Positions 1-63,448 of a stretch of 64,000 nt of DNA are shown piece by piece; position 1 is the stretch's first letter, and each line of letters begins with the position of its first letter. The notes under the pieces were generated by a model that searched no databases, had not been told where the DNA came from, and saw nothing but the letters and a program-made list of their open reading frames with translations. The stretch is taken from contig OX597843.1 in assembly GCA_951406725.2 (NCBI GenBank), positions 6,014,001 to 6,078,000 of the forward strand. Reading direction: 5' to 3'. Source of the DNA: Octopus vulgaris. Lineage: Eukaryota. The translations under genes were made by a program, and so were the position numbers.

Positions 1-255
1 TTTTAATATTCTCACAAAGAGTCTGAGGAACTTGCACAAAGTAGATGTAGCGGTTTTTAAATCAAAGCTGGACATCTTCCTGTCAAGAGTCCCAGATGAA
101 CCTACCTCACGACAAGAGGTGCAAATGAGAGTAGCTGTATCAAACTCCATTCTTCACCAAGTGCCACATATTAGACGAGGTTCTTCGCAATAACAGTGTA
201 GCACAAAACTGCGGTGCATTAGCATGGCCGCAGCTCTGAGCTGAAACTAGAGATT
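1..255 (+). mobile_element. 3' end of CR1-like LINE (ORF2 C-terminus plus 3' UTR), runs off window start
   Basis: Frame from nt 2 reads FNILTKSLRNLHKVDVAVFKSKLDIFLSRVPDEP...SNSILHQ...*, homologous to the C-terminus of the RT element at 31154-32470 (FNITPK...FKKSLDRFLQEIPDKP). It is followed by the tail GCGGTGC..GCATGGCC..hairpin..GAAAC. Confidence 0.8.
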
Positions 256-279
256 AAAAAAAGAATATATATATATATA

Positions 280-527
280 TTGCAGCGTGTAAGGTGTTTA
301 TAAGCCATTTACGAAACAAAATCCGTTAGATTCACTTCAACATTTAAATTTAATTTGTCAAAATATTTTCGTCGCTTTGAGACCGCGACCTGATCACTGA
401 CAAAGCTTCGTGCTTCAAAACTTTGTGTGTTTCTTGAATGGCTTATAAACACCTTCCACGCTGCAATTGCTTTCGTTCCAGCACACGATCTTAGATCAAG
501 TCACTCGCTATGCAAGTACATCTCCGT
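280..527. mobile_element. Penelope-like / retrozyme-like short element with ~40 bp inverted arms, inserted in TA/TG microsatellite
   Basis: 280-320 (TTGCAGCGTGTAAGGTGTTTATAAGCCATT..) is the near reverse complement of 425-466 and encloses a hammerhead-like motif. Family assignment is inference. Confidence 0.55.
354..404 (-). ncRNA. Minimal type-I hammerhead ribozyme-like motif, G3:C8 core variant
   Basis: Minus strand: TTTGTCA-GTGATCA-G-GTCGC ggtctcaaa GCGAC-GAAA-ATAT-TT-TGACAAA. 7 bp stem I, 5 bp stem II, palindromic stem III. Confidence 0.7.
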
Positions 528-600
528 GTATATACATATATATATGTGTGTGTGTGTGTTTGTGCCTGTGTGTGTGTGTGTGCGCGTGTGTGTGTGTATG

Positions 601-631
<31 letters not shown>

Positions 632-643
632 GCATATATATAT

Positions 644-1051
644 ACTCTTTTACTTGTTTCACTCATTTGACTGTGGCCATGCTGGAGCATCTCATTTCGT
701 CGTGCAAATCGACCCCAGGAATTATTCTTTGTAAGCCTAGTACGTATTCTATCTATCTCTTTTGCCGAACCTCTAAAGTTACGGGGACGTAAACATACCA
801 CCATCGGTTGTCATGTTGGGGGTACAAACACTGACATACAAACATATACACACACATACATACACACACACACATATATATATATATACATATATACGAC
901 GGGCTTCTTTCAGTTTCCGTCTACCAAATCCACTCCCAAGGCTTTGGTCGGCCCGAGGCTATAGTAAAAGACACTTGCCATAGCTGCCACGCAGTAGGAC
1001 TGAACCCGAAGCCATGTGGTTGGGAAGCAAGTTACTTACCACACACAGCCA
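644..1051 (-). mobile_element. SINE family A (tRNA head, CORE-like ACCTTGGGCAAGT, internal TA/TG microsatellite, CR1-type tail)
   Basis: Matches about 20 other copies in the window; ends in (AAAAGAGT)n-like tail. Confidence 0.9.
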
Positions 1052-1188
1052 TTTACATATATTTATCTACACATGCTGACATATATACATGCATACGCAC
1101 ACACGTATATAAAACATGATATATACATACTTACATAGACGTACACACATACACACACAATCATACATACACGCTCTCACACATGGTG

Positions 1189-1760
1189 CATGTGTGTGTC
1201 TATGTGAGCGTGTGTATGAGTGTGTGTGTATGCAAAAACGTGTGTGTGCGTCTATGTGAGCGTGTGTATGAGTGTGTGTGTGTATGCAAAAACGTGTGTG
1301 TGTGTGTCTATGTGAGCGTGTGTATGAGTGTGTGTGTATGCAAAAACGTGTGTGTGTGTGTCTATGTGAGCGTGTGTATGAGTGTGTGTGTGTATGCAAA
1401 AACGTGTGTGTGTGTCTATGTGAGCGTGTGTATGTGTATGCAAAAACGTGTGTGTGTGTCTATGTGAGCGTGTGTATGTGTATGCAAAAACGTGTGTGTG
1501 TGTCTATGTGAGCGTGTGTATGTGTATGCAAAACGTGTGTGTGTGTGTCTATGTGAGCGTGTGTATGAGTGTGTGTGTATGCAAAAACTTGTGTGTGTGT
1601 GTCTATGTGAGCGTGTGTATGAGTGTGTGTGTATGCAAAAACGTGTGTGTGTGTGTCTGTGTCTGCAAAAAACGTGTGTGTGTGTCTATGTGAGCGTGTG
1701 TATGCAAAAACGTGTGTGTGTGTGTCTATGTGAGCGTGTGTATGAGTGTGTGTGTGTCTA
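1189..1760. repeat. Compound minisatellite, ~45-55 bp unit (GT)nCTATGTGAGCGTGTGTATGAGT(GT)nATGCAAAAAC, about 11 copies
   Basis: Recurrent anchors CTATGTGAGCG and TGCAAAAAC separated by variable GT runs. Confidence 0.9.
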
Positions 1761-2524
1761 TGTGTATGTGCGTGTGAGTTTATGTGTGTCATTGTGTTTG
1801 TCTGTGGCTGTGTATTTGTGTGTGTACGTGTCCGTGTGTGAGTCTGTTGGTGTGTGGGTGTGTGTGTGGTGTGACTGTGTGTGTATATCTTTGTGCCTCT
1901 GTGTGTGTGTGTGTCTGAGTGTGTGTGTGTGTGCCTGTGTGTGTGTGTGTGTGTGTCTGTTTGTGTGTAGGTCGTGAATCGTTTGTTTAAGAAAAGGTAT
2001 GGGACAGGTGCTGGCGGTATTTGGAATGAAGGCGGTGGAGAAGCTTCTAGTGATGGTGGTGGTGGTGGTGGTGGTGGTAGCCGCGGCGGTCATTGTAATG
2101 GCGGCGTAGGCGGCAGCGGAAGTAAAGATTGTGGAAATAACAAGTAGAGGGGGAAAAGCCGTCGAAGATCAGCTGACGGAAGTGTGAAATTTTTCTGAGA
2201 AAACCTGGGTGAGATTTTGTGCCAGTGTGTGTGTGAATGTTTTATTAAACCAGCTACGTTGGCGGCCATTTTGCTGCTTGTTTTGCAAGCAGCAGGTGAC
2301 CCTAGGTAATTCTCACGCACACACCATATTCTCACCGACCATCCCGTCATTCATTAGAGTTGTAAGGCCGTGTTCATTCATAAATAAATAGGTGTGAGTG
2401 TGTGTGTGTATATATATGTATGTGTGTGTGTGAATATATATATATGACTGTGTGTGTGTATATGTGCGTATATATATATGAGTGTGTGTGTATTTATATA
2501 TGTGTGTATATATACATATATATT

Positions 2525-2898: not shown

Positions 2899-4157
2899 TC
2901 GATTACATCGACCCCAGTGCTCAACTAGTACTTATTTTGTCGACCTGGAATGGGTGAAAGGCAAAGTCGACCTCGGAGGGGATTTGAACTCAGAACATTA
3001 AGACAGACAGAACAGCACTGAACTTTTTGGTGAATGTTGAGTGACGCTTTTCGAAGAATCCGCGCTCATGTCTTTTCTATTCTAGACACAAGGCCCGAAA
3101 GTTTTGGGGGAGGAGCCAGTCGGTTTCATCGACCGCAATGCGCAACTGGTACTTTATTTATCGACCCCGGAAAGAATGTATGGCAAAGCTGACCTCGGCG
3201 GAATTTGAACTCAGAATGTAGCGGCAGACTAATTACCTATTTCTTTACTACCCACAAGGGGCTTAACTCAGAAGGAACAATCAAGGACAGACAAAGGGAT
3301 TAAGTCGATTATATCAACCCCAGTGCGTAACTGGTGCTTATTTAATCGACCCCGAAAGGATGAAAGGCAAAGTCGACCTCGGCGGAAATCGAACTCAGAA
3401 CGTTAAGACAGACGAAATATTGCTAAGCGTTTCGCACGCCGTGAAACGATTCTGCCAGCTCGCCGCCTTTATCCTCGCACTCGTCTGAGCCAAGCTAGCG
3501 CCTCTTAAGTTCACAAAATAATCTTTTCTACTCTAGGCACAAGGCCCGAAAATTTTGGGAAGGAGGCCAGTCGATTAGATCGACCCAGTACGCAAACTGG
3601 TACTTATTTAATCGACCCTGAAAGGATGAAAGGCAAAGTCGACCTCGGCGGAATTCGAACTCAGAACGTAAAGACAGACGAAATATCTCATTTCTTTACT
3701 GCTAACAAGGGGCTAAACACAGAGGGGACAAACAAGGACAGACATAGGGATTAAGTCGATTATATAGACCCCAGTGCGTAACTGGTACTTATTTAATCGA
3801 CCCCGAAATGATGAAAGGCAAAGTCGACCTCGGCGGAATTCGAACTCAGAACGTAAAGACAGACGAAATATCTCATTTCTTTACTGCTAACAAGGGGCTA
3901 AACACAGAGGGGACAAACAAGGACAGACATAGGTATTAAGTCGATTACATCGACCCCATTGCGGAACTGGTGCTTAATTTATCGACCCCGAAATGATGAA
4001 AGGCAAAGTCGACCTCGGCGGAATTCGAACTCAGAACGTAAAGACAGACGAAATACCGCTAGCGTTTCGCCCGGCGTGCTAACGATTCTGCCAGATCACC
4101 GCCTTTATCCGAGCTCACCTCTGAGCCAAGCAAGCGCCTTTTTAAGTTCACAAAATA
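2899..4157 (-). mobile_element. Cluster of SINE B units (tRNA-like head, central GAGGTCGACTTTGCCTTTCATCC domain, two alternative tails), tandemly duplicated
   Basis: Six body units. Block 3072-3520 is repeated as 3521-4157, including the same ~50 bp spacer (TGAGCCAAGC.AGCGCCT..TAAGTTCACAAAAT). Confidence 0.85.
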
Positions 4158-5449: not shown

Positions 5450-6287
5450 CGGGATATACTGTAGTCGAATAAAAGACAGGATGGTCACACCTGGAACGTC
5501 TTTTATCATAGGTCTAGTGAAGTGACCTGAGACGAAACAACGAGGAAGGATATATTAGATAATATAGTCCTCGGTACACTATGTCTGAATAAAAGACAGG
5601 ATGGTTACAGCTGGAACATTTTTGATCATAGGTGTGTCTGGATCAGGACTGACCCAGGGCTAAACAACGAGGACATATTAGATAATGTAGTCCTAGGTAC
5701 ACTATGCCTGAATAGAAGACAGGATGGTCACAGTTGGAACATCTTTGATCGGAGGTCAGCTGGATCAGGATTGACCTGCGGCTACACAACAGGTAAGAAC
5801 ACATTTTTTCTTTAGTCCTAGATACACTGTCTGAATAAAAGACGGGATGGTCACAGATGGAACGTCTGTGATCATAGGTCTGTCTGAATCAGGACTGACC
5901 CGGGGCTAAACAACAGAGAAGGACATTTTTTCTTTAGTCCTACATACACTGTCTGAATAAAAGACGGGGTGGTCACAGATGGAACGTCTGTGATCATAGG
6001 TCTGTCTGGATCAGGACTGACCCGGGGCTAAACAACAAAGAAGAACACATTTTTTCTTTAGTCCTAGATACACTGTCTGAATAAAAGACGGGGTGGTCAC
6101 AGATGGAACGTCTGTGATCATAGGTCTGTCTAAATCAGGACTGACCCGGGGCTAAACAACAGAGAAGGACACATTTTTTCTTTAGTCCTAGATACACTGT
6201 CAGAATAAAAGACGGGGTGGTCACAGATGGAACGCCTGTGATCATAGGTCTATCTGAATCAGGACTGACCCGGGGCTAAACAACAAC
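5450..6287 (+). repeat. Tandem array, 7 x ~120-124 bp
   Basis: GAATA(A/G)AAGAC anchor at ~5467, 5587, 5710, 5833, 5955, 6079, 6203; last four copies nearly identical; ends GGCTAAACAACAAC. Confidence 0.95.
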
Positions 6288-6690: not shown

Positions 6691-7630
6691 CAACGTTTAT
6701 TTTTAAAAGTAGTGGTTTGCTGATTGCAGCCCTCCCGTGAAATCTGGCTTTGTACAGCTCCCAGTGAACAGTTTTTGTGGAAACTGGGTTCTCGAAGTGG
6801 TCATTAAGCTCTGCAGTAATTTTGGGAGCTATACTTTTGCGATCCTTTCTAACAATTCGCGTAAGAGCCCGACAGTCCCTATCTGAAAGTCTTAGTTTTC
6901 TTCCTGAGTTTTGTTTCGACGAAGAGGTTTTTCCCTCTTTCTCAAAGACTCATTACTTTCAAGACAGTACTTCTTGATACACCAAACATTTCGGTTGTTT
7001 TTGTTACGCTAGCGTCTGCCATAGGAGTACCAACAAATTGACCTCTTTGAAAGTTCAATAGATCTGTTATGTTAATGAATTTTACTTACCTTTTTCTATG
7101 CTAGCGCCTGCCATAGGAGCACCAACAAATTGACCTCTTTGAAAGTCGTATAGATGTATCATTTTAATGAATTTTACTTACCTTTTTTCTATGCTAGCGC
7201 CTGCCATAGGAGCACCAACAGATTGACCTCTTTGAAAGTCGGATAGATCTGTTATGTTAATGAATTTTACTTACCTTTTTCTATGCTAGCGCCTGCCATA
7301 GGAGCACCAACAAATTGACCTCTTTGAAAGTCGGATAGATCTATCATTTTAATGAATTTCACTTACCTTTTACTATGCTAGCGCCTGCCATACGAGCACC
7401 AACAAATTGACCTCTTTGAAAGTCGGATACATCTGTCATTTTAATGAATTTTACTTACCTTTTTCTAATGATATCTAAAAAGAAACTGCAATTTCAGGAA
7501 CACATATTTAGCAACACAATAATAATAAATCAAAAAACATAAAAATAAACAAGCTTTTGATGGTTTTATAAATATTTCAAATTTATGATGCTATGATGCT
7601 AGGTGTTTCCATTATTTTGTCCAACCTCTG
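6691..7630 (-). pseudogene. Tc1-family transposon 5' fragment (TIR plus decayed transposase N-terminus)
   Basis: TA-CAGAGGTTGGACAAAATAATGGAAACACC terminus. The minus strand decodes, with frameshifts, to MTDxSDFQRGQFVGA..ASVTKTTEMFGVSRSTV..EKEGKTSSSKQNSGRK..LSDRD..LTRIVRKD..APKITAELNDHFENPVSTKTVH.EL.KA.FHGRAAI.KPLL, typical of the Tc1 HTH region. Confidence 0.85.
7008..7467. repeat. Tandem array, 5 x ~92 bp, spanning the Tc1 transposase start codon region
   Basis: GCTAGCG at 7008, 7100, 7193, 7285, 7377. Confidence 0.95.
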
Positions 7631-13548: not shown

Positions 13549-14371
13549 TTGTGTGTCTGTGTTTGTTCCCCTAGCATTGTTTGACAACCGATGATGGTGT
13601 GTTTACGTTCCCGTAACTTAGCGGTTCGGCAAAAGAGACCGATAAAATAAGTACTGGGCTTACAAAAGAATAAGTCCCGGGGTCGAGTTGCTCGATTAAA
13701 GGCGGTGCTCCAGCATGGCCGCAGTCAAATGACTGAAACAAGTAAAAGAGTAAAAGAGTATATAAAGCTGACGTTGTCTGTGTGTGGCAGGTTTGGTAGC
13801 CTTCAACTAACACTATCTCCTCCAAGACCCTGCGGCGCAAGTTGACCAAAATTGAGAGTATGATAGAAGAAGGCTTGCTCTTCCTTCCGTAGAAGAAAAA
13901 ATTCAAAACGGACCATGTTAACACCAAAAATTATTTACATCAAAAAGGTGCTGTTTTACTATGAAAATCCCTATTTTTTACGATTTATAAAGCTGAAGTT
14001 GTCTGTGTATGTCAGGTTTGGTAGCCTTCAACTAACACTATCTCCTCCAAGACCCTGCGGCGCAAGTTGACCAAAATTGAGAGTATGATAGAAGAAGGCT
14101 TGCTTTTCTTTCCGTAGAAGATAAAATTGATATCGGACCATGTTAACACCAAAAATTATTTACATTAAAAAGGTGCTTTTTTTTTTTGCTATGAAAACCC
14201 TATTTTTTACGATTTTTTGACTGCTATGTCGCCATTTCTCGGTGTATTTCAACCAGAAAAATGTTCAGTTAAAGAGAATAACAAGCTACAGAATGCACAA
14301 TTTTTACTTTTCAAAAATTCCGATTGTAAAGGGTCGAAACAAACCCGAGCAACGCCGGGCGATACTGCTAG
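13321..14371 (+). mobile_element. Non-autonomous Helitron family 1, with ~225 bp internal tandem duplication, interrupted by SINE A
   Basis: A|TCTATATA start, subterminal hairpin CCCGAGCAACGCCGGG, end CTAG|T; 13762-13985 duplicated at 13986-14213. Confidence 0.8.
13334..13760 (+). mobile_element. SINE A, full length, inserted in the Helitron 5' TA run
   Basis: Identity to SINE A. Confidence 0.92.
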
Positions 14372-14474: not shown

Positions 14475-15037
14475 GGAGGCGCAATGGCCCAGTGGTTAGG
14501 GCAGCGGACTCGCGGTCATAGGATCGCGGTTTCGATTCCCAGACCGGGCGTTGTGAGTGTTTATTGAGCGAAAACACCTAAAAAAGCTCCACGAGGCTCT
14601 GGCAGGGGATGGTGGTGATCCCTGCTGTACTCTTTCACCACAACTTTCTCTCACTCTTACTTCCTGTTTCTGTTGTACCTGTATTTCAAAGGGCCGGCCT
14701 TGTCACTCTCTGTGTCACGCTGAATATCCCCGAGAACTACGTTAAGGGTGCACGTGTCTGTGGTGTGCTCAGCCACTTACACGTTAATTTCACGAGCAGG
14801 CTGTTCCGTTGATTGGGATCAACCGGAACCCTCATCGTCGTAACCGACGGAGTGCTTCCATTTCAAAGGGCCAGCCTTGTCACTCTCTGTGTCACGCTGA
14901 ATATCCCCGAGAACTACGTTAAGGGTGCACGTGTCTGTGGTGTGCTCAGCCACTTACACGTTAATTTCACGAGCAGGCTGTTCCGTTGATTCGGATCAAC
15001 CGGAACCCTCATCGTCGTAACCGACGGAGTGCTTCCA
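14475..15037 (+). mobile_element. SINE C with duplicated ~178 bp tail, 13 bp TSD
   Basis: TTTCAAAGGGCC...GTGCTTCCA occurs twice; TAATTTAACGAAC at 14460 and 15038. Confidence 0.92.
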
Positions 15038-15470
15038 TAATTTAACGAACATTAGGCTGCTATTTCTAGCACGTCCCTCTACCAAGCAGAAATCCTCCTA
15101 AGACGCCACATAGTCACGATATTCCGTCCGGTTTATTCTCCACTTCGTTACCTCTTTATAGAACTATACACTGTCCATTGTACACCTTATCTTGTGAGAT
15201 CATCAAAGTTTAGATCCCTGTCGCCGTTCGTTAGGAATTTTATTAATGAAATTCGGAAAAGATACGAATTTTTGTGGTTTCATAAAATTTCGTTATTTTT
15301 GTTTTTCTTTAACGTTTTATTATTTATTTTATGCTTTTGGGGGACAATACCTTTTCATTTTTTTAACTTACTGACCTCTTGAAAAAATGTATAAATTAAA
15401 TGTGTGCTTGTCTATGTGTGTTGTGTGTGTACGTGTGTGTGTTGTGCGTATGTGTGTATTATTATTATTA

Positions 15471-29022: not shown

Positions 29023-29465
29023 CATCATTCATCATTGTTCGACCGTGGCATTACGGAGGTCCTGTTGCTGGACGCCTGTATCCCTGGAGATTACATCAGG
29101 GTAGGTATTGCGAGTAGATGGCTTCCAGAGGAGAAGAGTAGAAATTACCTCTTTTTCAGCTCTACAACAATGTCCAGCAAACTGGACTCTCCTACCTTTC
29201 ACAAAAGATGACACAGGTGGTAGTTTCCCATATATTTGTACTTTGGTTGGATGGCGCTTCCACGAGATATTTTGAACTCTCATAAGGAGGCGAGTGTAGG
29301 TTCCATCCAACCGCCTCTCAAGCTTCTTTGATAACGTCCAGGTTTCTGAGCCATAGAGTAGAATTGGTTCGACTGTGGCTTTGAAGATTTCAAGTTTGAA
29401 GTCTCTACTTAGATTTGATGACCAGATCTTATGCATGTCATTACAGGCTGATAAGGCCATACCCA
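29023..29465 (-). mobile_element. RTE-clade LINE, 5'-truncated, 11 bp TSD
   Basis: KIW.SNLSRDFKLEIFKATVEPILLYGSETWTL...QFAGHC; ATGATGA tail; AGATTAGTCTT at 29012 and 29466. Confidence 0.9.
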
Positions 29466-29598
29466 AGATTAGTCTTGGTTCTACCTATCAAATCATCCAC
29501 GATGAGCTCATCTTCCATAAAGTCTGTCTTCTTGTCTTGAGACAGCATTCGCCCGGCGTGCTATCGTTTCTGCCAGCTCGCCACCTTAAAAATGTATC

Positions 29599-30706: not shown

Positions 30707-31153
30707 TATGTATATATATATATATATATATACGTATGTATATATATATACGTGTGTGTGTGTGTGTGTGTGTGTATAGCTGTCTCGGAATCAGCCCTTC
30801 GTAAACATTATGGGCCGTATATTTTATACAACGTACATGTCTTAATATCTCAAGAGCGGATTTCTTTACTCAGCTGGGTCTAATTGTCTACATTCACAGT
30901 AAGATTATCAATCTTCCGGTACCTATGTACCGAGTTTCATATTTACTTAATATTGTTATGTGTGTATTCCGCCCTAACGAGGTACCTCAATTTAAGTGCC
31001 TAATACAACTGAGTCTTACCTATATATGCATATACATATACATATATATACATATATGTTATGTATACCTTATATATATATATGTATGTATGTATGTATG
31101 TATATGTAATTATATGTATATATATGGATATACGTATGTATGTATGTCAATAT

Positions 31154-32470
31154 TGCCTAACGCAGCTCCTGCATCACTTTGATGACATTTTAAGAGCTTT
31201 GGGAGAGGGCTCCAACACCGATGTCATCTACCTTGATTTCAGCAAGGCCTTCGACAGGGTTGATCACAAGATCCTATTGAAAAAACTATCCAACATTGGT
31301 GTCTCTGGAAAGTTACTGAAATGGATCAAGTGTTTCCTAACAGACAGATCTCAACATGTTGTAGTTGAAGGAGCAAAATCAAGCCCAGCCAAAGTCAGTA
31401 GTGGCGTTCCGCAAGGCACTGTGCTGGGCCCACTTCTTTTCATCATCTACATTAATGACATTAATGACATCATCAAGCACAGCAACATAAAAATCTTTGC
31501 AGATGATTCCAAGCTACAGAAGGTCATAAATGAGGCGAGTGACCGGACATGCCTTCAGTCAGATCTACTGGCTGTTATCCAATGGGCAGAAAAAAACAAT
31601 ATGCTGCTGAACGAGGATAAATTCGAGTTAATCCACTTTGGAAAAGAGGATGCCCTGAAACTTCCATACTCCCTTCCTTCAGGTGAAACTCTCGTGGCAT
31701 CCAACAACATCAGAGACTTAGGAGTAATTGTGGACAACAACATAAGCTGGGCCACCACTCATATAAACACCAAAGTTGACATGGCCCGCAGAATGTGTTC
31801 CTGGATTCTCAGAACTTTCCAGTCGAGAGATATCCACACCATTATCCTTCTCTTCTCCACTTTTGCCCGACCCCACCTTGAATACTGTTGTCCACTGTGG
31901 TCTCCCCACACAAAACAAAGTATCATAAAAGTTGAAGCACCTCAAAGGGCAATCACAAAATAGATAGATGGCATGACAGGCCTCGACTATTGGGGTCGAC
32001 TAGAAAAGCTAAAACTTTATTCTCTCCAACGTCGCCGTGAGCGCTACATATCTGCATGATGTGGAAAATACTCCACCAGCATTGCCCAAATGATGTTGGC
32101 ATCACCTTTAAGGTACATCCAAGGCTTGGGCCCCGTGCCATCCGCCCACAACAAAAATCGCACTCTCATCTCATAACAACAATACGGCACAATTATTTCA
32201 CCTGAATTGGCCCCGCTCTCTTTAACATTACACCAAAACACATTAAAACAGAAACGGACCCTATAGGGTTCAAGAAGTCTTTGGACAGATTCCTTCAAGA
32301 AATCCCGGATAAACCCCCTACACCCGGATATATCTCTGTAAACAATAACTCTCTACTTGAGTGGGCCATAGTGCCCAAATTCTGACTTGAAAGACTTCAC
32401 CAGGTGGTGCTATTAAGTTAGACATGGCCTGAGCCAATAATGGCCGAAACCTATCAAAGTATCAAAGTAT
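31154..32470 (+). mobile_element. CR1-like LINE, 5'-truncated, reverse transcriptase pseudogene
   Basis: CLTQLL, YLDFSKAFD, SGVPQGTVLGP, FADD, DLGV, RPHLEYC motifs. Frameshift at ~31960, then YWGRLEKLKLYSLQRRRERY with stops; (TATCAAAG)2 tail; lies in TA/TATG repeats. Confidence 0.95.
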
Positions 32471-39402: not shown

Positions 39403-39564
39403 TTATTATTATTATTATTATTATTATCATCATTATTATTATGTAATGGTATGCACAAATGTGTTATATTTGTAATTAACGCCCTTGATAGCGAGTCACA
39501 AATATTACCAGCAGCGCCGCCGTCATAATCATTACGACCAACATTATTATAATTGTTGTTGTTA

Positions 39565-43709
<4,145 letters not shown>

Positions 43710-44014
43710 TGTAATAGTATGGACAAATTTGCTATATTTGGAAATAATGTCCTTGATAGCAAACCACAACTACTTTCTTAGTATATATATATACATATAT
43801 GCATATGTGTGTTTACACACACACACACACATGACGGACATTTCAAACAATCCTTCCTGCGCCCAAATACATCATATTTGTCTCATTATTACTCTTAGTT
43901 TGTTTGTTTTTTTTTGTTTTTGTTTTTTGGTGGGATGAGAGGTTTACGTTAAACCTGCTTTACACGCAAAACACTCACAGCAACACACACACACAGGCCC
44001 CATACACCATAACA

Positions 44015-46899: not shown

Positions 46900-47132
46900 T
46901 CATCATCATCATCACCACCGCTACAGTCATCGTCGCCGACGCCGCTGTCAGCATCACCACCTTTACCATCACCACCACCACTTCCACCATCACCACCACC
47001 ACCATCACCACCACCACCACCACCATCATCATCACCATCATCATCATCACCACCACCACTATCATCATCATCACCACCACCACCACTATCATCATCATCA
47101 TCATCACCACCACCACTATCATCATCATCATC

Positions 47133-47166
<34 letters not shown>

Positions 47167-47813
47167 CCACCACCACTATCATCATCATCATCACCACCAC
47201 CACCACCACTATCATCATTATCATCACCACCACCAATATCATCATCATCATCATCACCACCACCACCACTATCATCATCATCATCATCACCACCACCACT
47301 ATCATCATCATCATCATCGTCACCACCACCACTATAATCATCATCATCATCACCACCACCACTATTATCATCATCATCATCACCACCACCACCACCACCA
47401 CTATCATCATCATCATCATCACCACCACCACTATCATCATCATCATCATCATCATCACCACCACCACTATCATCATCATCATCATCACCACCTCCACCAC
47501 CACCACTATCATCATCATCATCATCATCATCACCACCACCACTATCATCATCATCATCATCACCACCACCACAATCATCATCATCATCATCATCACCACC
47601 ACCACTATCATCATCATCATCATCACCCAAACCACCACCACCACTATCATCATCATCATCATCATCACCACCACCATCATCATCATCATCATCACCACCA
47701 CCACTATCATCATCATCATCATCACCACCACCACTATTATCATCATCATCATCATCATCAACACCACCACTATCATCATCACCACCACCACCACTATCAT
47801 CATCATCATCATC

Positions 47814-47847
<34 letters not shown>

Positions 47848-48490
47848 TCACCACCACCACTATCATCATCATCACCACCACCACCACCACTATCATCATC
47901 ATCATCATCACCACAACCACCACCACCACTATCATCATCATCATCACCACCACCACCACCACCACTATCATCATCATCATCATCACCACCACCACCACCA
48001 CTATCATCATCATCATCATCACCACCACCACTATCATCATCATCATCATCACCACCACCACCACCACCACTATCATCATCATCATCATCACCACCACCAC
48101 TATTATCATCATCATCATCACCACCACCACCACCACCACTATCATCATCATCATATTAACCACCACCACTATCATCATCATCATCATCACCACCACCACT
48201 ATCATCATCATCATCATCACCACCACCACTATTATCATCATCATCATCATCATCATCACCACCACCACTATCATCATCATCACCACCACCACTATTATCA
48301 TCATCATCATCATCACCACCACCACCACCACCACTATCATCATCATCATCATCACCACCACCACTATTATCATCATCATCATCATCACCACCACCACCAC
48401 CACCACTATCATCATCATCATCACCACCACCACCACTATTATCATCATCATCATCACCACCACCACCACCACTATCATCATCATCATCAT

Positions 48491-48522
<32 letters not shown>

Positions 48523-49512
48523 TCACCACCACTATCATCATCATCATCATCACCACCACCACTATCATCATCATCATCATCACCACCACCACCACCACCA
48601 CTATCATCATCATCATCATCACCACCACCACTACTATTATCATCATCATCATCATCACCACCACCACCACTATCATCATCATCATCATCATCACCACCAC
48701 CACCACCACCACCACCACTATCATCATCATCATCATCACCACCACCACTACTATTATCATCATCATCATCATCATCACCACCACCACCACCACTATCATC
48801 ATCATCATCATCACCACCACCACTACTATTATCATCATCATCATCATCACCACCACCTACTATTATCATCATCATCATCATCACCACCACCACTATCATC
48901 ATCATCATCATCACCACCACCACTATCATCATCATCATCACCACCACTATCATCATCATCATCATCACCACCACCACTATCATCATCATCATCACCACCA
49001 CCACCACCACTATCATCATCATCATCATCACCACCACCACTACTATTATCATCATCATCATCATCACCACCACCACCACCACTATCATCATCATCATCAT
49101 CATCACCACCACCACCAACACTATCATCATCATCACCACCACCACCACCACCACTATCATCATCATCATCATCATCACCACCACCACTATCATCATCATC
49201 ATCACCACCACCACCACTATCATCATCATCATCATCACCACCACCACTATCATCATCATCACCACCACCACCACCACTATCATCATCATCATCATCACCA
49301 CCACCACTATCATCATCATCATCATCACCACCACCACCACCACCACTATCATCATCATCATCATCACCACCACCACCACCACCACTATCATCATCATCAT
49401 CATCACCACCACCACCACCACTACCATCATCATCATCACCACCACCACCACTATCATCACCATCATCATCACCACCACCACCACCACTATCATCATCATC
49501 ATCATCACCACC

Positions 49513-49546
<34 letters not shown>

Positions 49547-49590
49547 TCACCACCACCACCACCACTATCATCATCATCAACATCACCACC

Positions 49591-49651
<61 letters not shown>

Positions 49652-50223
49652 CCACCACCACCACTATCATCATCATCATCATCATCACCACCACCACCAC
49701 CACTATCATCATCATCATCATCATCACCACCACCACCACCACTATCATCATCATCATCATCACCACCACCACCACCTATCATCGTCATCATCATCATCAC
49801 CACCACCACTATCATCATCATCACCACCACCACCACCACCACTATCATCATCATCATCATCACCACCACCACCACCACCACTATCATCATCATCATCATC
49901 ACCACCACCACCACTATCATCATCATCATCATCACCACCACCACCACCACTATCATCGTCATCATCATCATCACCACCACCACTATCATCATCATCACCA
50001 CCACCACCACCACCACTATCATCATCATCATCATCACCACCACCACCACCACCACTATCATCATCATCACCACCACCACCACCACCACTATCATCATCAT
50101 CATCATCATCACCACCACCACTATCATCATCATCATCACCACCACCACTATCATCATCATCATCACCACCACCACCACTATTATCATCATCATCATCATC
50201 ACCACCACCACTATCATCATCAT

Positions 50224-50255
<32 letters not shown>

Positions 50256-51387
50256 CCACCACCACCACTATCATCATCATCATCATCATCACCACCACTA
50301 TCATCATCATCATCATCATCACCACCACCACTATCATCATCATCATCATCATCACCACCACCACTATCATCATCATCATCATCACCACCACCACTATCAT
50401 CATCATCATCACCACCACCACCACTATCATCATCATCATCATCATCACCACCACCACTATCATCATCATCATCATCATCACCACCACCACTATCATCATC
50501 ATCATCATCACCACCACCACCACTATCATCATCATCATCATCATCACCACCACCACTATCATCATCATCATCATCACCACCACCACCACTATCATCATCA
50601 TCATCATCATCACCACCACCACTATCATCATCATCATCATCACCACCACCACCACTATCATCATCATCATCATCATCACCACCACCACTATCATCATCAT
50701 CATCATCACCACCACCACCACTATCATCATCATCATCATCATCACCACCACCACTATCATCATCATCATCATCACCACCACCACCACTATCATCATCATC
50801 ATCATCATCACCACCACCACTATCATCATCATCATCATCATCACCACCACCACTATCATCATCATCATCAACATCACCACCACCACTATCATCATCATCA
50901 TCATCACCACCACCATCATCATCATCATCATCATCACCACCACCACTATCATCATCATCATCATCACCACCACCACTATCATCATCATCATCATCATCAC
51001 CACCACCACTATCATCATCATCATCATCATCATCACCACCACCACTATCATCATCATCATCACCACCACCACCACTATCATCATCATCATCATCATCACC
51101 ACCACCACTATCATCATCATCATCATCATCACCACCACCACTATCATCATCATCATCATCATCATCACCACCACCACTATCATCATCATCATCACCACCA
51201 CCACCACTATCATCATCATCATCATCACCACCACCACCCCCACTATCATCATCATCATCACCACCACCACCACTATCATCATCATCATCATCATCACCAC
51301 CACCACTATCATCATCATCATCACCACCACCACCACTATCATCATCATCATCAACATCACCACCACCACTATCATCATCATCATCAT

Positions 51388-51419
<32 letters not shown>

Positions 51420-52239
51420 TCACCACCACCACTATCATCATCATCATCATCACCACCACCACTATCATCATCATCATCATCATCACCACCACCACTATTA
51501 TCATCATCATCATCATCATCACCACCACCACTATCATCATCACCACCACCACCACTATCATCATCATCATCATCACCACCACCACTATCATCATCATCAT
51601 CACCACCACCACCACCACCACTATCATCATCATCATCACCACCACCACCACCACCACTATCATCATCATCATCATCATCACCACCACCACCACCACTATC
51701 ATCATCATCATCATCACCACCACCACCACCACCACTATCATCATCATCATCATCATCACCACCACCACCACCACTATCATCATCATCATCACCACCACCA
51801 CCACCACTATCATCATCATCACCACCACCACCACCACCACTATCATCATCATCATCATCATCACCACCACCACCACCACTATCATCATCATCATCATCAC
51901 CACCACCACTATCATCATCATCATCATCACCACCACCACTATCATCATCATCATCATCACCACCACCACCACCACTATTATCATCATCATCATCATCACC
52001 ACCACCACTATCATCATCACCACCACCACTATTATCATCATCATCATCATCACCACCACCACTATCATCATCATCATCATCACCACCACCACTATCATCA
52101 CCACCACCACCACCACCACTATTATCATCATCATCATCATCACCACCACCACCACTATCATCATCATCATCATCACCACCACCACTATCATCATCATCAT
52201 CATCATCACCACCACCACTATCATCATCATCATCATCAT

Positions 52240-52271
<32 letters not shown>

Positions 52272-55200
52272 CCACCACCACTATCATCATCATCATCATC
52301 ATCACCACCACCACTATCATCATCATCATGATCATCACCACCACCACTATTATCATCATCATCATCATCACCACCACCACTATCATCATCATCATCATCA
52401 CCACCACCACTATCATCACCACAACCACCACCACCACTATTATCATCATCATCATCATCACCACCACCACTATCATCATCATCATCATCATCACCACCAC
52501 CACTATCATCATCATCATCATCACCACCACCACTATCATCATCATCATCACCACCACCACCACTATCATCATCATCATCATCATCACCACCACCACTATC
52601 ATCATCATCATCATCATCACCACCACCACTATCATCATCATCATCATCATCACCACCACCACTATCATCATCATCATCATCATCACCACCACCACTATCA
52701 TCATCATCATCATCATCACCACCACCACTATCATCATCATCATCATCACCACCACCACTATCATCATCATCATCATCATCACCACCACCACTATCATCAT
52801 CATCATCATCACCACCACCACTATCATCATCATCATCATCATCACCACCACCACTATCATCATCATCATCATCATCACCACCACCACTATCATCTTCATC
52901 ATCATCATCACCACCACCACTATCATCATCATCATCACCACCACCACCACTATCATCATCATCATCATCATCACCACCACCACTATCATCATCATCATCA
53001 TCACCACCACCACTATCATCATCATCATCATCACCACCACCACTATTATCATCATCATCATCATCATCACCACCACCACTATCATCATCATCATCACCAC
53101 CACCACCACTATCATCATCATCATCATCACCACCACCACTATCATCATCATCATCATCACCACCACCACTATCATCATCATCATCATCATCATCATCACC
53201 ACCACCACTATCATCATCATCATCATCACCACCACCACCACTATCATCATCATCATCAACACCACCACCACTATCATCATCATCATCATCACCACCACTA
53301 TCATCATCATCACCACCACCACTATTATCATCATCATCATCATCATCACCACCACCACTATCATCATCATCATCACCACCACCACCACTATCATCATCAT
53401 CATCATCACCACCACCACCACTATCATCATCATCATCATCACCACCACCACTATCATCATCATCATCATCATCACCACCACCACTATCATCATCATCATC
53501 ACCACCACCACCACTATCATCATCATCATCATCACCACCACCACCACTATCATCATCATCATCATCACCACCACCACTATCATCATCATCATCATCACCA
53601 CCACCACTATTATCATCATCATCATCATCACCACCACCACTATCATCATCATCATCATCATCACCACCACCACTATCATCATCATCATCATCACCACCAC
53701 CACCACCACTATCATCATCATCATCACCACCACCACCACTATCATCATCATCATCATCACCACCACCACCACTATCATCATCATCATCATCATCATCACC
53801 ACCACCACTATCATCATCATCATCATCACCACCACCTACTATCATCATCATCATCATCATCATCACCACCACCACTATCATCATCATCATCATCACCACC
53901 ACCACTATCATCATCATCATCATCATCACCACCACCACTATCATCATCATCATCATCACCACCACCACCACCACTATTATCATCATCATCATCATCATCA
54001 CCACCACCACCTATCATCATCATCATCACCACCACCACCACTATCATCATCATCATCATCATCACCACCACCACTATCATCATCATCATTATCACCACCA
54101 CCACTATCATCATCATCATCATCACCACCACCACTATTATCATCATCATCATCATCATCACCACCACCACTATCATCATCATCATCATCACCACCACCAC
54201 TATCATCATCATCATCATCATCACCACCACCACTATCATCATCATCATCATCACCACCACCACCACTATCATCATCATCATCATCATCATCACCACCACC
54301 ACCACTATCATCATCATCATCACCACCACCACCACTATCATCATCATCATCACCACCACCACCACTATCATCATCATCACCACCACCACCACTATCATCA
54401 TCATCATCACCACCACCACCACTATCATCATCATCATCACCACCACCACCACTATCATCATCATCATCACCACCACCACCACTATCATCATCATCATCAT
54501 CATCATCACCACCACCACTATCATCATCATCATCATCACCACCACCACTACTATCATCATCATCATCATCATCACCACCACCACTATCATCATCATCATC
54601 ATCACCACCACCACTATCATCATCATCATCATCACCACCACCACTATTATCATCATCATCATCATCATCACCACCACCACTATCATCATCATCATCACCA
54701 CCACCACCACTATCATCATCATCATCATCATCACCACCACCACTATCATCATCATCATCATCACCACCACCACTATCATCATCATCATCATCATCACCAC
54801 CACCACCACTATCATCATCATCATCACCACCACCACCACTATCATCATCATCATCATCACCACCACCACTATCATCATCATCATCATCACCACCACCACT
54901 ATCATAATCATCATCATCACCACCACCACTATTATCATCATCATCATCATCATCACCACCACCACTATCATCATCATCATCACCACCACCACCACTATCA
55001 TCATCATCATCATCATCACCACCACCACTATCATCATCACCACCACCACCACTATCATCATCATCATCATCACCACCACCACTATCATCATCATCATCAT
55101 CATCACCACCACCACTATCATCATCATCACCACCACCACCACCACTATCATCATCATCATCACCACCACCACCACCACCACTATCATCATCATCATCATC

Positions 55201-56879
55201 ATCACCACCACCACCACCACTATCATCATCATCATCATCACCACCACCACCACCACTATCATCATCATCATCATCATCACCACCACCACTATCATCATCA
55301 TCACCACCACCACCACCACCACTATCATCATCATCACCACCACCACCACCACCACTATCATCATCATCATCATCATCACCACCACCACTATCATCATCAT
55401 CATCATCACCACCACCACTATCATCATCATCATCATCACCACCACCACTATCATCATCATCATCATCACCACCACCACTATTATCATCATCATCATCATC
55501 ACCACCACCACCACCACCACCACTATCATCATCATCATCATCACCACCACCACCACCACCACCATCATCATCATCACCACCACCACTATCATCACCACCA
55601 CCACCACCACCACTATTATCATCATCATCATCATCACCACCACCACCACTATCATCATCATCATCATCATCACCACCACCACTATCATCATCATCATCAT
55701 CATCACCACCACCACTATCATCATCATCATCATCATCACCACCACCACTATCATCATCATCATCATCATCACCACCACCACTATCATCATCATCATCATC
55801 ATCACCACCACCACTATCATCATCATCATGATCATCACCACCACCACTATCATCATCATCATCATCACCACCACCACTATCATCATCATCATCATCACCA
55901 CCACCACTATCATCACCACCACCACCACCACCACTATTATCATCATCATCATCATCACCACCACCACCACTATCATCATCATCATCATCATCACCACCAC
56001 CACTATCATCATCATCATCATCACCACCACCACTATCATCATCATCATCACCACCACCACCACTATCATCATCATCATCATCATCACCACCACCACTATC
56101 ATCATCATCATCATCATCACCACCACCACTATCATCATCATCATCATCATCATCACCACCACCACTATCATCATCATCATCATCACCACCACCACTCATC
56201 ATCATCATCATCATCACCACCACCACTATCATCATCATCATCATCACCACCACCACCACTATCATCATCATCATCATCATCACCACCACCACTATCATCA
56301 TCATCATCATCACCACCACCACTATCATCATCATCATCATCATCACCACCACCACTATCATCATCATCATCATCATCACCACCACCACTATCATCATCAT
56401 CATCATCATCACCACCACCACTATCATCATCATCATCACCACCACCACCACTATCATCATCATCATCATCATCACCACCACCACTATCATCATCATCATC
56501 ATCACCACCACCACTATCATCATCATCATCATCACCACCACCACTATTATCATCATCATCATCATCACCACCACCACCACTATCATCATCATCATCACCA
56601 CCACCACCACTAGATCATCATCATCATCATCACCACCACCCCACTATCATCATCATCATCATCACCACCACCACCACTATCATCATCATCATCATCATCA
56701 TCACCACCACCACTATCATCATCATCATCACCACCACCACCACTATCATCATCATCATCATCATCACCACCACCACTATCATCATCATCATCATCACCAC
56801 CACCACTATCATCATCATCACCACCACCACTATTATCATCATCATCATCATCATCACCACCACTATCATCATCATCATC

Positions 56880-56913
<34 letters not shown>

Positions 56914-58796
56914 CCACCACCACCACTATCATCATCATCATCATCACCACCACCACTATCATCATCATCATCATCATCATCACCACCACTATCATCATCA
57001 TCATCACCACCACCACCACTATCATCATCATCATCATCATCACCACCACCACCATCATCATCATCATCACCACCACCACTATCATCATCATCATCATCAC
57101 CACCACCACTATCATCATCATCATCATCATCACCACCACCACTATCATCATCATCATCATCATCACCACCACCACCACATCATCATCATCATCATCACCA
57201 CCACCACTATCATCATCATCATCATCACCACCACCACTATCATCATCATCATCATCACCACCACCACCACTATCATCATCATCATCATCATCACCACCAC
57301 CACTATCATCATCATCATCATCACCACCACCACTATCATCATCATCATCATCATCATCACCACCACCACTATCATCATCATCATCACCACCACCACCACT
57401 ATCATCATCATCATCATCATCACCACCACCACTATCATCATCATCATCATCACCACCACCACTATTATCATCATCATCATCATCATCACCACCACCACTA
57501 TCATCATCATCATCACCACCACCACCACTATCATCATCATCATCATCATCACCACCACCACTATCATCATCATCATCATCACCACCACCAATATCATCAT
57601 CATCATCATCACCACCACCACTATTATCATCATCATCATCATCATCACCACCACCACTATCATCATCATCATCATCACCACCACCACTATCATCATCATC
57701 ATCATCATCACCACCACCACTATCATCATCATCATCATCACCACCACCACCACTATCATCATCATCATCATCATCATCACCACCACCACCACTATCATCA
57801 TCATCATCACCACCACCACCACTATCATCATCATCATCACCACCACCACCACTATCATCATCATCATCACCACCACCACCACTATCATCATCATCATCAC
57901 CACCACCACTATCATCATCATCATCACCACCACCACCACTATCATCATCATCATCACCACCACCACCACTATCATCATCATCATCATCATCATCACCACC
58001 ACCACTATCATCATCATCATCATCACCACCACCACCACTATCATCATCATCATCATCATCACCACCACCACTATCATCATCATCATCATCACCACCACCA
58101 CTATCATCATCATCATCATCACCACCACCACTATTATCATCATCATCATCATCATCACCACCACCACTATCATCATCATCATCACCACCACCACCACTAT
58201 CATCATCATCATCATCATCACCACCACCACTATCATCATCATCATCATCACCACCACCACTATCATCATCATCATCATCATCATCACCACCACCACTATC
58301 ATCATCATCATCACCACCACCACCACTATCATCATCATCATCATCATCACCACCACTATCATCATCATCATCATCACCACCACCACTATCATCATCATCA
58401 TCATCACCACCACCACTATTATCATCATCATCATCATCATCACCACCACCACTATCATCATCATCATCACCACCACCACTATCATCATCATCATCATCAT
58501 CACCACCACCACTATCATCATCATCATCACCACCACCACTATCATCATCATCATCATCACCACCACCACTATCATCATCATCATCATCATCACCACCACC
58601 ACTATCATCATCATCACCACCACCACCACCACCACTATCATCATCATCATCACCACCACCACCACCACTATCATCATCATCATCATCATCACCACCACCA
58701 CCACCACTATCATCATCATCATCATCACCACCACCACCACCACCACTATCATCATCATCATCATCATCCACCACCACCACCATCATCATCATCATC

Positions 58797-58827
<31 letters not shown>

Positions 58828-59132
58828 CCACCACCACCACCACTATCATCATCATCATCATCATCACCACCACCACCACCACTATCATCATCATCATCAT
58901 CACCACCACCACTATCATCATCATCATCATCATCACCACCACCACTATCATCATCATCATCATCACCACCACCACTATTATCATCATCATCATCATCACC
59001 ACCACCACTATCATCATCACCACCACCACTATTATCATCATCATCATCATCACCACCACCACTATCATCATCATCATCATCACCACCACCACCACTATCA
59101 TCACCACCACCACCACCACCACCACTATCATC

Positions 59133-59164
<32 letters not shown>

Positions 59165-60256
59165 CATCACCACCACCACTATCATCATCATCATCATCAT
59201 CACCACCACCACTATCATCATCATCATGATCATCACCACCACCACTATCATCATCATCATCATCACCACCACCACTATCATCATCATCATCACCACCACC
59301 ACCACTATCATCATCATCATCATCATCACCACCACCACTATCATCATCATCATCATCATCACCACCACCACTATCATCATCATCATCATCATCATCACCA
59401 CCACCACTATCATCATCATCATCATCATCACCACCACCACTATCATCATCATCATCATCACCACCACCACTATCATCATCATCATCACCACCACCACCAC
59501 AATCATCATCATCATCACCACCACCACCACCACTACCATCATCATCATCATCACCACCACCACCACCACTATCATCATCATCATCACCACCACCACCACC
59601 ACTATCATCATCATCATCATCACCACCACCACTATCATCATCATCATCACCACCACCACCACCACTATCATCATCATCATCATCACCACCACCACCACTA
59701 CTATTATCATCATCATCACCACCACCACCACCACTATCATCATCATCATCATCACCACCACCACCACTATCATCATCATCATCATCACCACTATCATCAT
59801 CATCATCATCACCACCACCACCACCACTATCATCATCATCATCACCACCACCACCACTATCATCATCATCATCATCACCACCACCACCACTATCATCATC
59901 ATCATCATCACCACCACCACCACTATCATCATCATCATCATCACCACCACCACCACCACTATCATCATCATCATCACCACCACCACTATCATCATCATCA
60001 TCATCATCACCACCACCACTATCATCATCATCATCATCATCACCACCACTATCATCATCATCATCATCATCACCACCACTATCATCATCATCATCACCAC
60101 CACCACCACCACTATCATCATCATCATCATCACCACCACCACTATCATCATCATCATCATCACCACCACCACCACTATCATCATCATCATGATCATCACC
60201 ACCACTATCATCATCATCATCATCACCACCACCACCACTATCATCATCATCATCAT

Positions 60257-60288
<32 letters not shown>

Positions 60289-61352
60289 CCACCACCACTA
60301 TCATCATCATCATCATCACCACCACCACCACTATCATCATCATCATCATCACCACCACCACCACTATCATCATCATCATCATCACCACCACCACCACTAT
60401 CATCATCATCATCATCATCATCACCACCACTATCATCATCATCATCACCACCACCACCACCACTATCATCATCATCATCATCACCACCACCACCACCACT
60501 ATCATCATCATCATCACCACCACCACCACTATCATCATCATCATCATCACCACCACCACTATCATCATCATCATCATCACCACCACCACCACTATCATCA
60601 TCATCATCATCACCACCACCACTACTATCATCATCATCATCATCACCTCCACCACTACTATTATCATCATCATCATCACCACCACCACTACTATCATCAT
60701 CATCATCATCATCACCACCACCACTATCATCATCATCATCATCACCACCACCACTATCATCATCATCATCATCACCACCACCACTATCATCATCATCATC
60801 ACCACCACCACCACCACTATCATCATCATCATCATCACCACCACCACTATCATCATCATCATCATCACCACCACCACCACCACTATCATCATCATCACCA
60901 CCACCACCACTATCATCATCATCATCATCACCACCACCACCACCACTATCATCATCATCATCACCACCACCACTATCATCATCATCATCATCATCACCAC
61001 CACTATCATCATCATCATCATCACCACCACCACTATCATCATCATCATCATCATCACCACCACTATCATCATCATCATCATCATCACCACCACCACTATC
61101 ATCATCATCATCATCATCACCACCACCACTATCATCATCATCATCACCACCACCACCACTATCATCATCATCATCATCACCACCACCACCACCACTATCA
61201 TCATCATCATCATCACCACCACCACCACCACTATCATCATCATCATCACCACCACCACCACCACTATCATCATCATCATCATCACCACCACCACTACTAT
61301 TATCATCATCATCATCATCATCACCACCACCACTACTATTATCATCATCACC

Positions 61353-61386
<34 letters not shown>

Positions 61387-63396
61387 CCACCACCACCACT
61401 ATCATCATCATCATCATCACCACCACCACCACTATCATCATCATCATCATCACCACCACCACCACTATCATCATCATCATCATCACCACCACCACCACTA
61501 TCATCATCATCATGATCATCACCACCACTATCATCATCATCATCATCACCACCACCACTATCATCATCATCATCATGATCATCACCACCACTATCATCAT
61601 CATCATCATCACCACCACCACTATCATCATCATCATCATCACCACCACCACCACTATCATCATCATCATGATCATCACCACCACTATCATCATCATCATC
61701 ATCACCACCACCACTATCATCATCATCATCATCATCACCACCACCACTATCATCATCATCATCATCATCACCACCACCACCACCACTATCATCATCATCA
61801 TCATCACCACCACCACTATCATCATCATCATCACCACCACCACCACTATCATCATCATCATCATCATCACCACCACTATCATCATCATCATCATCATCAC
61901 CACCACCACCACCACTATCATCATCATCATCATCATCATCACCACCACTATCATCATCATCATCATCATCACCACCACCACCACTATCATCATCATCATC
62001 ATCATCACCACCACCACTATCATCATCATCATCACCACCACCACCACCACTATCATCATCATCCACCACCACTATCATCATCATCATCATCACCACCACC
62101 ACCACCACTATCATCATCATCATCACCACCACCACCACCACTATCATCATCATCACCACCACCACCACCACTATCATCATCATCATCATCACCACCACCA
62201 CCACCACTATCATCATCATCATCATCATCACCACCACCACCACCACTATCATCATCATCATCATCATCATCACCACCACTATCATCATCATCATCATCAT
62301 CACCACCACCACTATCATCATCATCATCATCATCACCACCACCACTATCATCATCATCACCACCACCACCACCACTATCATCATCATCATCATCACCACC
62401 ACTATCATCATCATCATCATCACCACCACCACCACCACTATCATCATCATCATCATCACCACCACCACCACCACTATCATCATCATCACCACCACCACCA
62501 CCACTATCATCATCATCATCATCACCACCACCACCACCACTATCATCATCATCATCATCACCACCACCACCACCACTATCATCATCATCATCACCACCAC
62601 CACCACCACCACTATCATCATCATCATCATCACCACCACCACCACTATCATCATCATCATCATCACCACCACCACCACAACTATCATCATCATCATCATC
62701 ATCACCACCACCACCACTATCATCATCATCATCATCATCACCACCACTATCATCATCATCATCACCACCACCACCACTATCATCATCATCATCATCATCA
62801 CCACCACTATCATCATCATCATCACCACCACCACCACTATCATCATCATCATCACCACCACCACCACCACCACTATCATCATCATCATCATCACCACCAC
62901 CACCACCACTATCATCATCATCATCACCACCACCACCACCACCACTATCATCATCATCATCATCACCACCACCACCACTATCATCATCATCATCATCACC
63001 ACCACCACCACAACTATCATCATCATCATCATCATCACCACCACCACCACCACTATCATCATCATCATCATCATCACCACCACTATCATCATCATCATCA
63101 CCACCACCACCACTATCATCATCATCACCACCACCACCACCACCACCATCATCATCACCACCACCACTACTATTATCATCATCATCATCATCACCACCAC
63201 CACCACTATCATCATCATCATCATCATCATCACCACCACTATCATCATCATCATCATCATCACCACCACCACCACCACTATCATCATCATCATCACCACC
63301 ACCACTATCATCATCATCATCATCACCACCACCACTATTATCATCATCATCATCATCACCACCACCACCACCACCACTATCATCATCACCACCACC

Positions 63397-63427
<31 letters not shown>

Positions 63428-63448
63428 CCACCACCACCACCACCACCG
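46900..63448. repeat. 16.5 kb compound satellite, unit about 27-36 bp: (ACC)3-6 ACT [ATT] (ATC)4-7
   Basis: Direct reading; plus strand almost devoid of G. Confidence 0.98.

Follow-up and report, generated by a model that had tools for sequence, protein, structure and literature searches.

A Penelope-like hammerhead motif with a natural G3:C8 core swap in Octopus vulgaris

The motif and the repeat copy in the window

The stretch analyzed here, which we call the window, comprises 64,000 nucleotides of Octopus vulgaris contig OX597843.1 (assembly GCA_951406725.2, positions 6,014,001 to 6,078,000, forward strand). Positions 279–527 of the window are one copy of a repeat dispersed through the 2.8-Gb genome, and the minus strand of this copy contains a minimal type I hammerhead motif in which the C3:G8 core pair is replaced by G3:C8. 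Judged on its sequence, we consider this to be a real hammerhead motif of a Penelope-like element (PLE) that carries a natural swap of the core pair; its cleavage is a prediction. The motif is laid out as follows.

354..404, minus strand: minimal type I hammerhead motif with a G3:C8 core pair, 51 bases
398..404, minus strand: stem I, 5′ strand, 7 nucleotides
391..397, minus strand: core G3-U4-G5-A6-U7-C8-A9 (GUGAUCA), with G3 at 397 and C8 at 392
390, minus strand: extra nucleotide G between A9 and G10.1
371..389, minus strand: stem II, 5 base pairs with G10.1-C11.1 at the base, plus a 9-nucleotide loop II
368..370, minus strand: G12-A13-A14
362..367, minus strand: palindrome AAUAUU, from A15.1 to U16.1
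361, minus strand: U17
354..360, minus strand: stem I, 3′ strand

In the hammerhead numbering that we assume here, the cut would presumably fall after U17, between 361 and 360. An earlier note on this DNA had proposed a minus-strand hammerhead with a GUGAUCA core at this place, and both the letters and RNAfold, which returns stems I and II, bear it out. The layout given in the note stands except that its series GAAA, AAUAUU and UU counted A15.1 and U16.1 twice, the actual series being GAA, AAUAUU and U. The nucleotides required of a hammerhead (U4 G5 A6 N7, A9, G12 A13 A14, A15.1-U16.1 and a base other than G at 17) are all present, while the literal C3 and G8 of the CUGANGA pattern are found neither in this motif nor in its family.

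A hammerhead shape could also arise as a chance match inside a repeat. This would fit with the folding energy, which taken alone is not significant (z of −1.78, with 14 of 200 shuffles folding equally well), and with a scan of window positions 1–2000 against Rfam, where none of the 58 matches at E ≤ 10 was a hammerhead and the only matches were to microRNAs, driven by microsatellites. The full descriptor, comprising the core, both stems and the palindrome, argues against chance: it has one match in the real sequence, at 354–404, and none, with any Watson–Crick 3:8 pair allowed, in 150 shuffled versions of the window's first 39 kb, which preserved dinucleotides approximately and were searched on both strands.

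The repeat copy around the motif is a fold-back structure with the following parts, in which the pseudo-long terminal repeat (pLTR) and open reading frame (ORF) are those of the element described in the next section.

264..280, no strand: left flank of the (TA)n target of insertion, with TA/TG repeats again from 528
279..417, minus strand: direct arm, the 3′ part of the pLTR without its tail, with the hammerhead and the first 10 ORF codons (ATG at 306–308); 85–86% identical to full-length copies L376 and L377
422..527, plus strand: inverted arm, the ORF start (ATG at 438–440, stop at codon 19) and a tail of about 56 nucleotides

The window copy is thus a decayed, truncated fold-back insertion, and it is predicted to misfold. 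The pair probability of stem I in the window context is about 0.01, since the inverted arm is predicted to outcompete it, and the U7 of this copy, which is a minor state in the family, renders the core self-complementary. Given also the stop at codon 19 and that no second hammerhead motif was found in the window, this genomic copy is probably inactive. The description of the motif as an intact natural variant therefore applies to the family, which keeps G3, C8 and both stems, and not to the copy at 354–404.

The Penelope-like element that carries the motif

Most copies of the repeat are about 150 or 205 nucleotides long, with ends that fall before or after the tail of about 56 nucleotides, and they begin near one point some 13–15 nucleotides before stem I (43 of 137 alignments). 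In many copies there is an inverted arm, which varies in length, and just one side bears the tail; in many others the arm is absent. An insertion pattern of inverted truncated copies with a one-sided tail has been described for PLEs (PMC8557442).

Nine loci reach further 5′ through a CATA-rich tract, which when followed leads to an ORF that encodes the YVDD motif of a reverse transcriptase (RT), a linker of the form CX3CxxC and a GIY-YIG endonuclease. We refer to this element as family A. It has an older and a young subfamily, the latter with 86% protein identity to the former and open frames of up to 1025 amino acids. In the 1025-residue frame the GIY-YIG domain scores 25.4 bits against a Pfam cut-off of 22.6; Pfam RVT_1 gave no match to this frame, and the RT is assigned from its motifs together with a weak match (E of 2e-8) to the RT of another PLE. 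The CX2-5CxxC linker of the definition in PMC8557442 is present ahead of the endonuclease in P0001.

The motif and the ORF belong to the same element. In the young loci L302–L311 the G3:C8 motif lies downstream of the ORF in 10 of 10, in L323 and L324 it runs continuously into the ATG and the ORF, and in L376 two motifs 4261 nucleotides apart flank the ORF, with G3 92 nucleotides before the ATG. Partial tandems, pLTRs, inverted truncated copies and the one-sided tail are all seen, L376 being among the examples. The tail is itself the start of the ORF, and a tail within the first ORF codons also occurs in the anole element (PMC11167929). Among these loci, no copy of family A was seen that is both full-length and free of damage: L376 and L377 carry stops and L303 is truncated at its 5′ end. 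Because the motif is continuous with an ORF that encodes RT and GIY-YIG, the repeat is best read as the pLTR plus tail of a Neptune/Nematis-type endonuclease-containing (EN+) PLE, the probable clade being assigned from the linker. The earlier note had guessed at a Penelope-like link, which is thus borne out. Compared with the Neptune/Nematis-type EN+ elements of Craig et al. (2021, PMC8557442), where the tail is 30–40 nucleotides long, the tail here is longer.

The same continuity decides against a reading of 279–527 as a miniature inverted-repeat transposable element with terminal inverted repeats, in which the motif would be incidental. Such a reading has in its favor the 40-nucleotide inverted repeat at 279–318 and 428–467, but the variable length of the inverted arm, its absence from many copies, the one-sided tail and the match to the ORF start of an RT element all speak against it, and we regard it as barely credible. 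A classification as a non-long-terminal-repeat retrozyme was likewise rejected: these copies do not form head-to-tail arrays of short non-coding units, and are dispersed fragments of a coding element.

We note that a branch-point-like CTAAC, a pyrimidine tract and an AG lie just 5′ of the common start point of the copies, about 13–15 nucleotides before stem I (L056, L060, L157, L164, L165, L166, L171, L222 and L229). This site could serve either as a transcription start or as a splice acceptor like that of Drosophila virilis Penelope.

The G3:C8 state and its direction

A 23-letter pattern that left positions 3, 7 and 8 free has 3534 exact matches in the genome, and G3/C8 occurs in 96 of the first 100 listed. 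In a set of 127 copies chosen without regard to positions 3 and 8, there are 103 with G3:C8, 20 with G3:G8 and 4 with other states; A7 occurs in 122 of the 127 and U17 in 125. Within the family the single common stem change is U-A to U-G (13/127). A family consensus, which the earlier note had proposed as a check, retains G3, C8 and both stems across genomic copies. Loop II is the only part of the motif that differs between the subfamilies: the majority sequences of the young and older subfamilies agree at all 42 positions of the core and stems and disagree at 5 of the 9 in loop II (p = 5e-5, although the loop II changes may represent few events). In the first 30 codons the common variants comprise 3 synonymous and 10 non-synonymous changes, most of the latter being CpG decay. 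The repeat is present in four organisms. G3:C8 is thus the family state of a high-copy and recently active family.

Two sister families and a more distant relative indicate how this state arose. Family C has 58% protein identity to family A in the RT/endonuclease region and 35% in the N-terminus, with open frames of 1312 amino acids, and holds the motif at the same place, in the 5′ untranslated region (UTR), with C3:G8. Between the two families the stems show compensatory changes, from G-C to A-U in stem II and from U-A to C-G in stem I. Family B shares both stems, together with the sequence that follows downstream, with family A, and carries G8 in 30 of 32 rows. A metagenome relative with 41% protein identity (L412) has a canonical C3:G8 motif. 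The pairing potential of positions 3 and 8 is therefore maintained with covariation across relatives, as G:C in family A and C:G in family C and L412. Given that all three outgroups carry G8, we infer that G8 is ancestral and G3:C8 derived, and the sister families with G8 show that the swap occurred naturally in a homologous motif. The homology to family C, in position, alignable sequence and compensatory stem changes, also refutes the chance match considered above, which we now regard as very improbable. By the literal CUGANGA rule the motif stands outside the described consensus, but by homology and layout it is the same motif.

Some features of the relatives deserve separate mention. Family C is a very young PLE, in which position 17 is U or C by subfamily (L404, minus strand, at 2159 and 6757 on that strand, and L405–L411). 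Family B is an old sister repeat with 2027 candidates, and its stem III region holds GGAC, which is not palindromic (L155:560-880 and L346–L375); no ORF or autonomous parent of this family was found. A separate abundant PLE family has 781-residue frames and U3:A8 minimal hammerheads with a CAUG palindrome (L098, L100, L101, L104, L109, L115, L122, L129 and L134); it came from the first GIY-YIG screen and was rejected as the parent of family A, to which it has no DNA similarity. Further canonical CUGANGA minimal-hammerhead matches occur in unrelated dispersed repeats (L037, L127, L312, L305 and L396).

Predicted cleavage and comparison with known hammerheads

In the mechanism that we propose, the core pair shifted naturally from C3:G8 to G3:C8 in the octopus PLE hammerhead, and G3:C8 would preserve the tertiary pair through which nucleotide 8 is positioned for the cut after U17. 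When a tandem transcript contains two motifs, these would pair through AAUAUU and so complete stem III; the palindrome allows such a dimer, which is a possible form and not the predicted minimum-energy one. Most insertions span the cut site and would hence have been made from uncut RNA, so that any cutting is likely to be slow or partial. The thousands of truncated copies, that in the window included, are pLTR-plus-tail insertions. In the context of the young subfamily both stems fold with a probability near 1. Published minimal hammerheads of PLEs are inefficient and cleave solely in multimeric form (PMC4209133), and in the anole element cleavage requires protein; there, C3G or G8C alone abolishes cleavage and the double C3G/G8C change partly restores it (PMC11167929). 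We therefore predict a weak self-cleavage that depends on dimerization or on protein, and consider this reasonably probable on the sequence comparisons.

A number of observations weigh against this reading, and several of them favor instead a true hammerhead descendant that has lost cutting at a useful rate, its fold being kept for another job in the 5′ UTR (protein binding, or control of splicing or translation) or simply undergoing slow drift. The first concerns the G3:G8 mismatch, which accounts for 38 of the first 100 listed of the 426 non-C8 matches, against about 15 expected from mutation, as calculated from background changes (C-to-G, 24/156). It is also found in 10 of the 22 cores from 30 long-copy loci, mostly on contig C16. 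Because G3:G8 is commoner than mutation explains, a predicted-dead G3:G8 master also spread. The relatives add to this, in that family B is mostly U3 (23 of 32, in a search whose query was itself a U3 copy), giving a wobble core pair with G8, and has C3 in 7; in family C, A9 is replaced by C in 50 of 50 motif matches, from overlapping loci. Within family A, conservation at the 42 unchanged positions does not significantly exceed that of the sequence flanking the motif (0/42 vs. 9/154, p = 0.21). In RNA reads from three runs (1651, 1274 and 1218 reads) there is no pile-up of molecule starts or ends, although these reads come mostly from dispersed copies, and this absence neither proves nor excludes slow cleavage. 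In the model, stem III brings no gain in stability, and the double-hammerhead dimer is less favorable than the predicted dimer minimum by 4 to 6 kcal/mol. Of 30 loci selected by the sequence that lies 3′ of the cut, none starts cleanly at it, in keeping with insertions that span it, and in vitro the anole element inserts without need for cleavage (PMC11167929).

Two points stand against a loss of cutting. The first is that two transversions, which jointly restore a Watson–Crick 3:8 pair, are fixed in both the old and young subfamilies, and this is hard to explain without selection on the geometry of the active site. The second is that U4, G5, A6, A9, G12-A14 and a base other than G at 17 are all retained (U17 in 125/127). 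We therefore give the loss of cutting a substantial but clearly minority probability.

The G3:G8 copies have some further properties. Long copies of the older subfamily cluster on contig C16, and many of them are G3:G8 (L257, L259, L264, L266, L271, L273, L274, L278 and L279). A tree of 26 endonuclease regions needs three changes at the core, its base being compatible either with ancestral G3:G8 or with reversion. In the downstream sequence the G3:G8 copies have a divergence of 4.3% compared with 2.7%, which gives them a slightly older look, in samples that were picked differently. The RNA reads occur in both orientations without strand bias in the three runs, and no variants at positions 3 or 8 are among the read variants listed.

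The closest known systems are the pLTR hammerheads of Cervera and de la Peña (2014, PMC4209133), which have the same type I layout with an extra nucleotide after A9 and G10.1-C11.1, the same short palindrome for stem III and a base other than G at 17, and which likewise occur in both pLTRs and as thousands of dispersed single copies. Their core pairs are reported as C3:G8 and U3:A8, and every row consulted in the supplementary alignment opens with C3 or U3, whereas here the pair is G3:C8; the extra nucleotide is G in family A in contrast to their non-G consensus, and stem I is longer here, at 7 base pairs. Natural U3:A8 hammerheads (Perreault et al., 2011, PMC3088659; Schistosoma Cercyon, PMC4209133) show the same kind of natural covariation at 3:8. 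However, U3:A8 requires two transitions and keeps a purine at position 8, whereas G3:C8 requires two transversions, which leave the general-acid position with a pyrimidine.

The same core pair has been engineered by C3G/G8C rescue, including in PAc, the anole Poseidon element, where the hammerhead is also near the ORF start (Frangieh et al., 2024, PMC11167929). PAc belongs to the Poseidon clade and its ORF starts inside stem II, while in octopus family A the ATG is 92 nucleotides downstream of G3. The versions in PMC11167929 and in the review PMC8495972 are laboratory mutants with partial activity, whereas here the pair is fixed in a natural family that multiplied recently. In the sections consulted, G3:C8 occurs solely as an engineered variant in PMC11167929, PMC8495972 and PMC3884650, and a natural G3:C8 is absent from PMC6765202, PMC10085705, PMC6155905, PMC6962438, a 2026 retrozyme preprint and the supplement of PMC4209133. 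We thus found no natural G3:C8 in this literature, only engineered ones, although Lünse et al. (2017), the largest survey of PLE variants, may already list it.

We tentatively propose, with slightly less than even confidence, that a recently active family of animal retrotransposons uses a functional hammerhead whose active-site pair is inverted to G3:C8; that C3:G8 with C9, U3/G8 and G3:G8 would form a natural series tracing the swap; and that CUGANGA-based genome surveys would have missed this class. G3:C8 served in the laboratory as the proof of the 3:8 tertiary pair, with only partial rescue, and here it has been fixed and then multiplied to thousands of copies. The swap has thus proved viable in a natural element, and hammerheads are undercounted by standard descriptors. 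In this one genome, related elements hold the motif in paired, wobble and mismatched forms, which offers a way to test whether the spread of a PLE depends at all on cutting by its hammerhead.

The remainder of the window is rich in tandem repeats. An array of ATC/ACC triplets extends over 16.5 kb (46968–63439), with a period of 33, about 508 copies and a near-total skew of C over G, and an (ATT)n tract covers 4.2 kb (39543–43710). Tandem duplications with periods of 92–246 nucleotides are present at 3569–4055, 5565–6286, 7008–7467, 13761–14215 and 14683–15038. Open frames resembling fragments of the RT of long interspersed nuclear elements lie at 31013–31960 on the plus strand and 29035–29484 on the minus strand.
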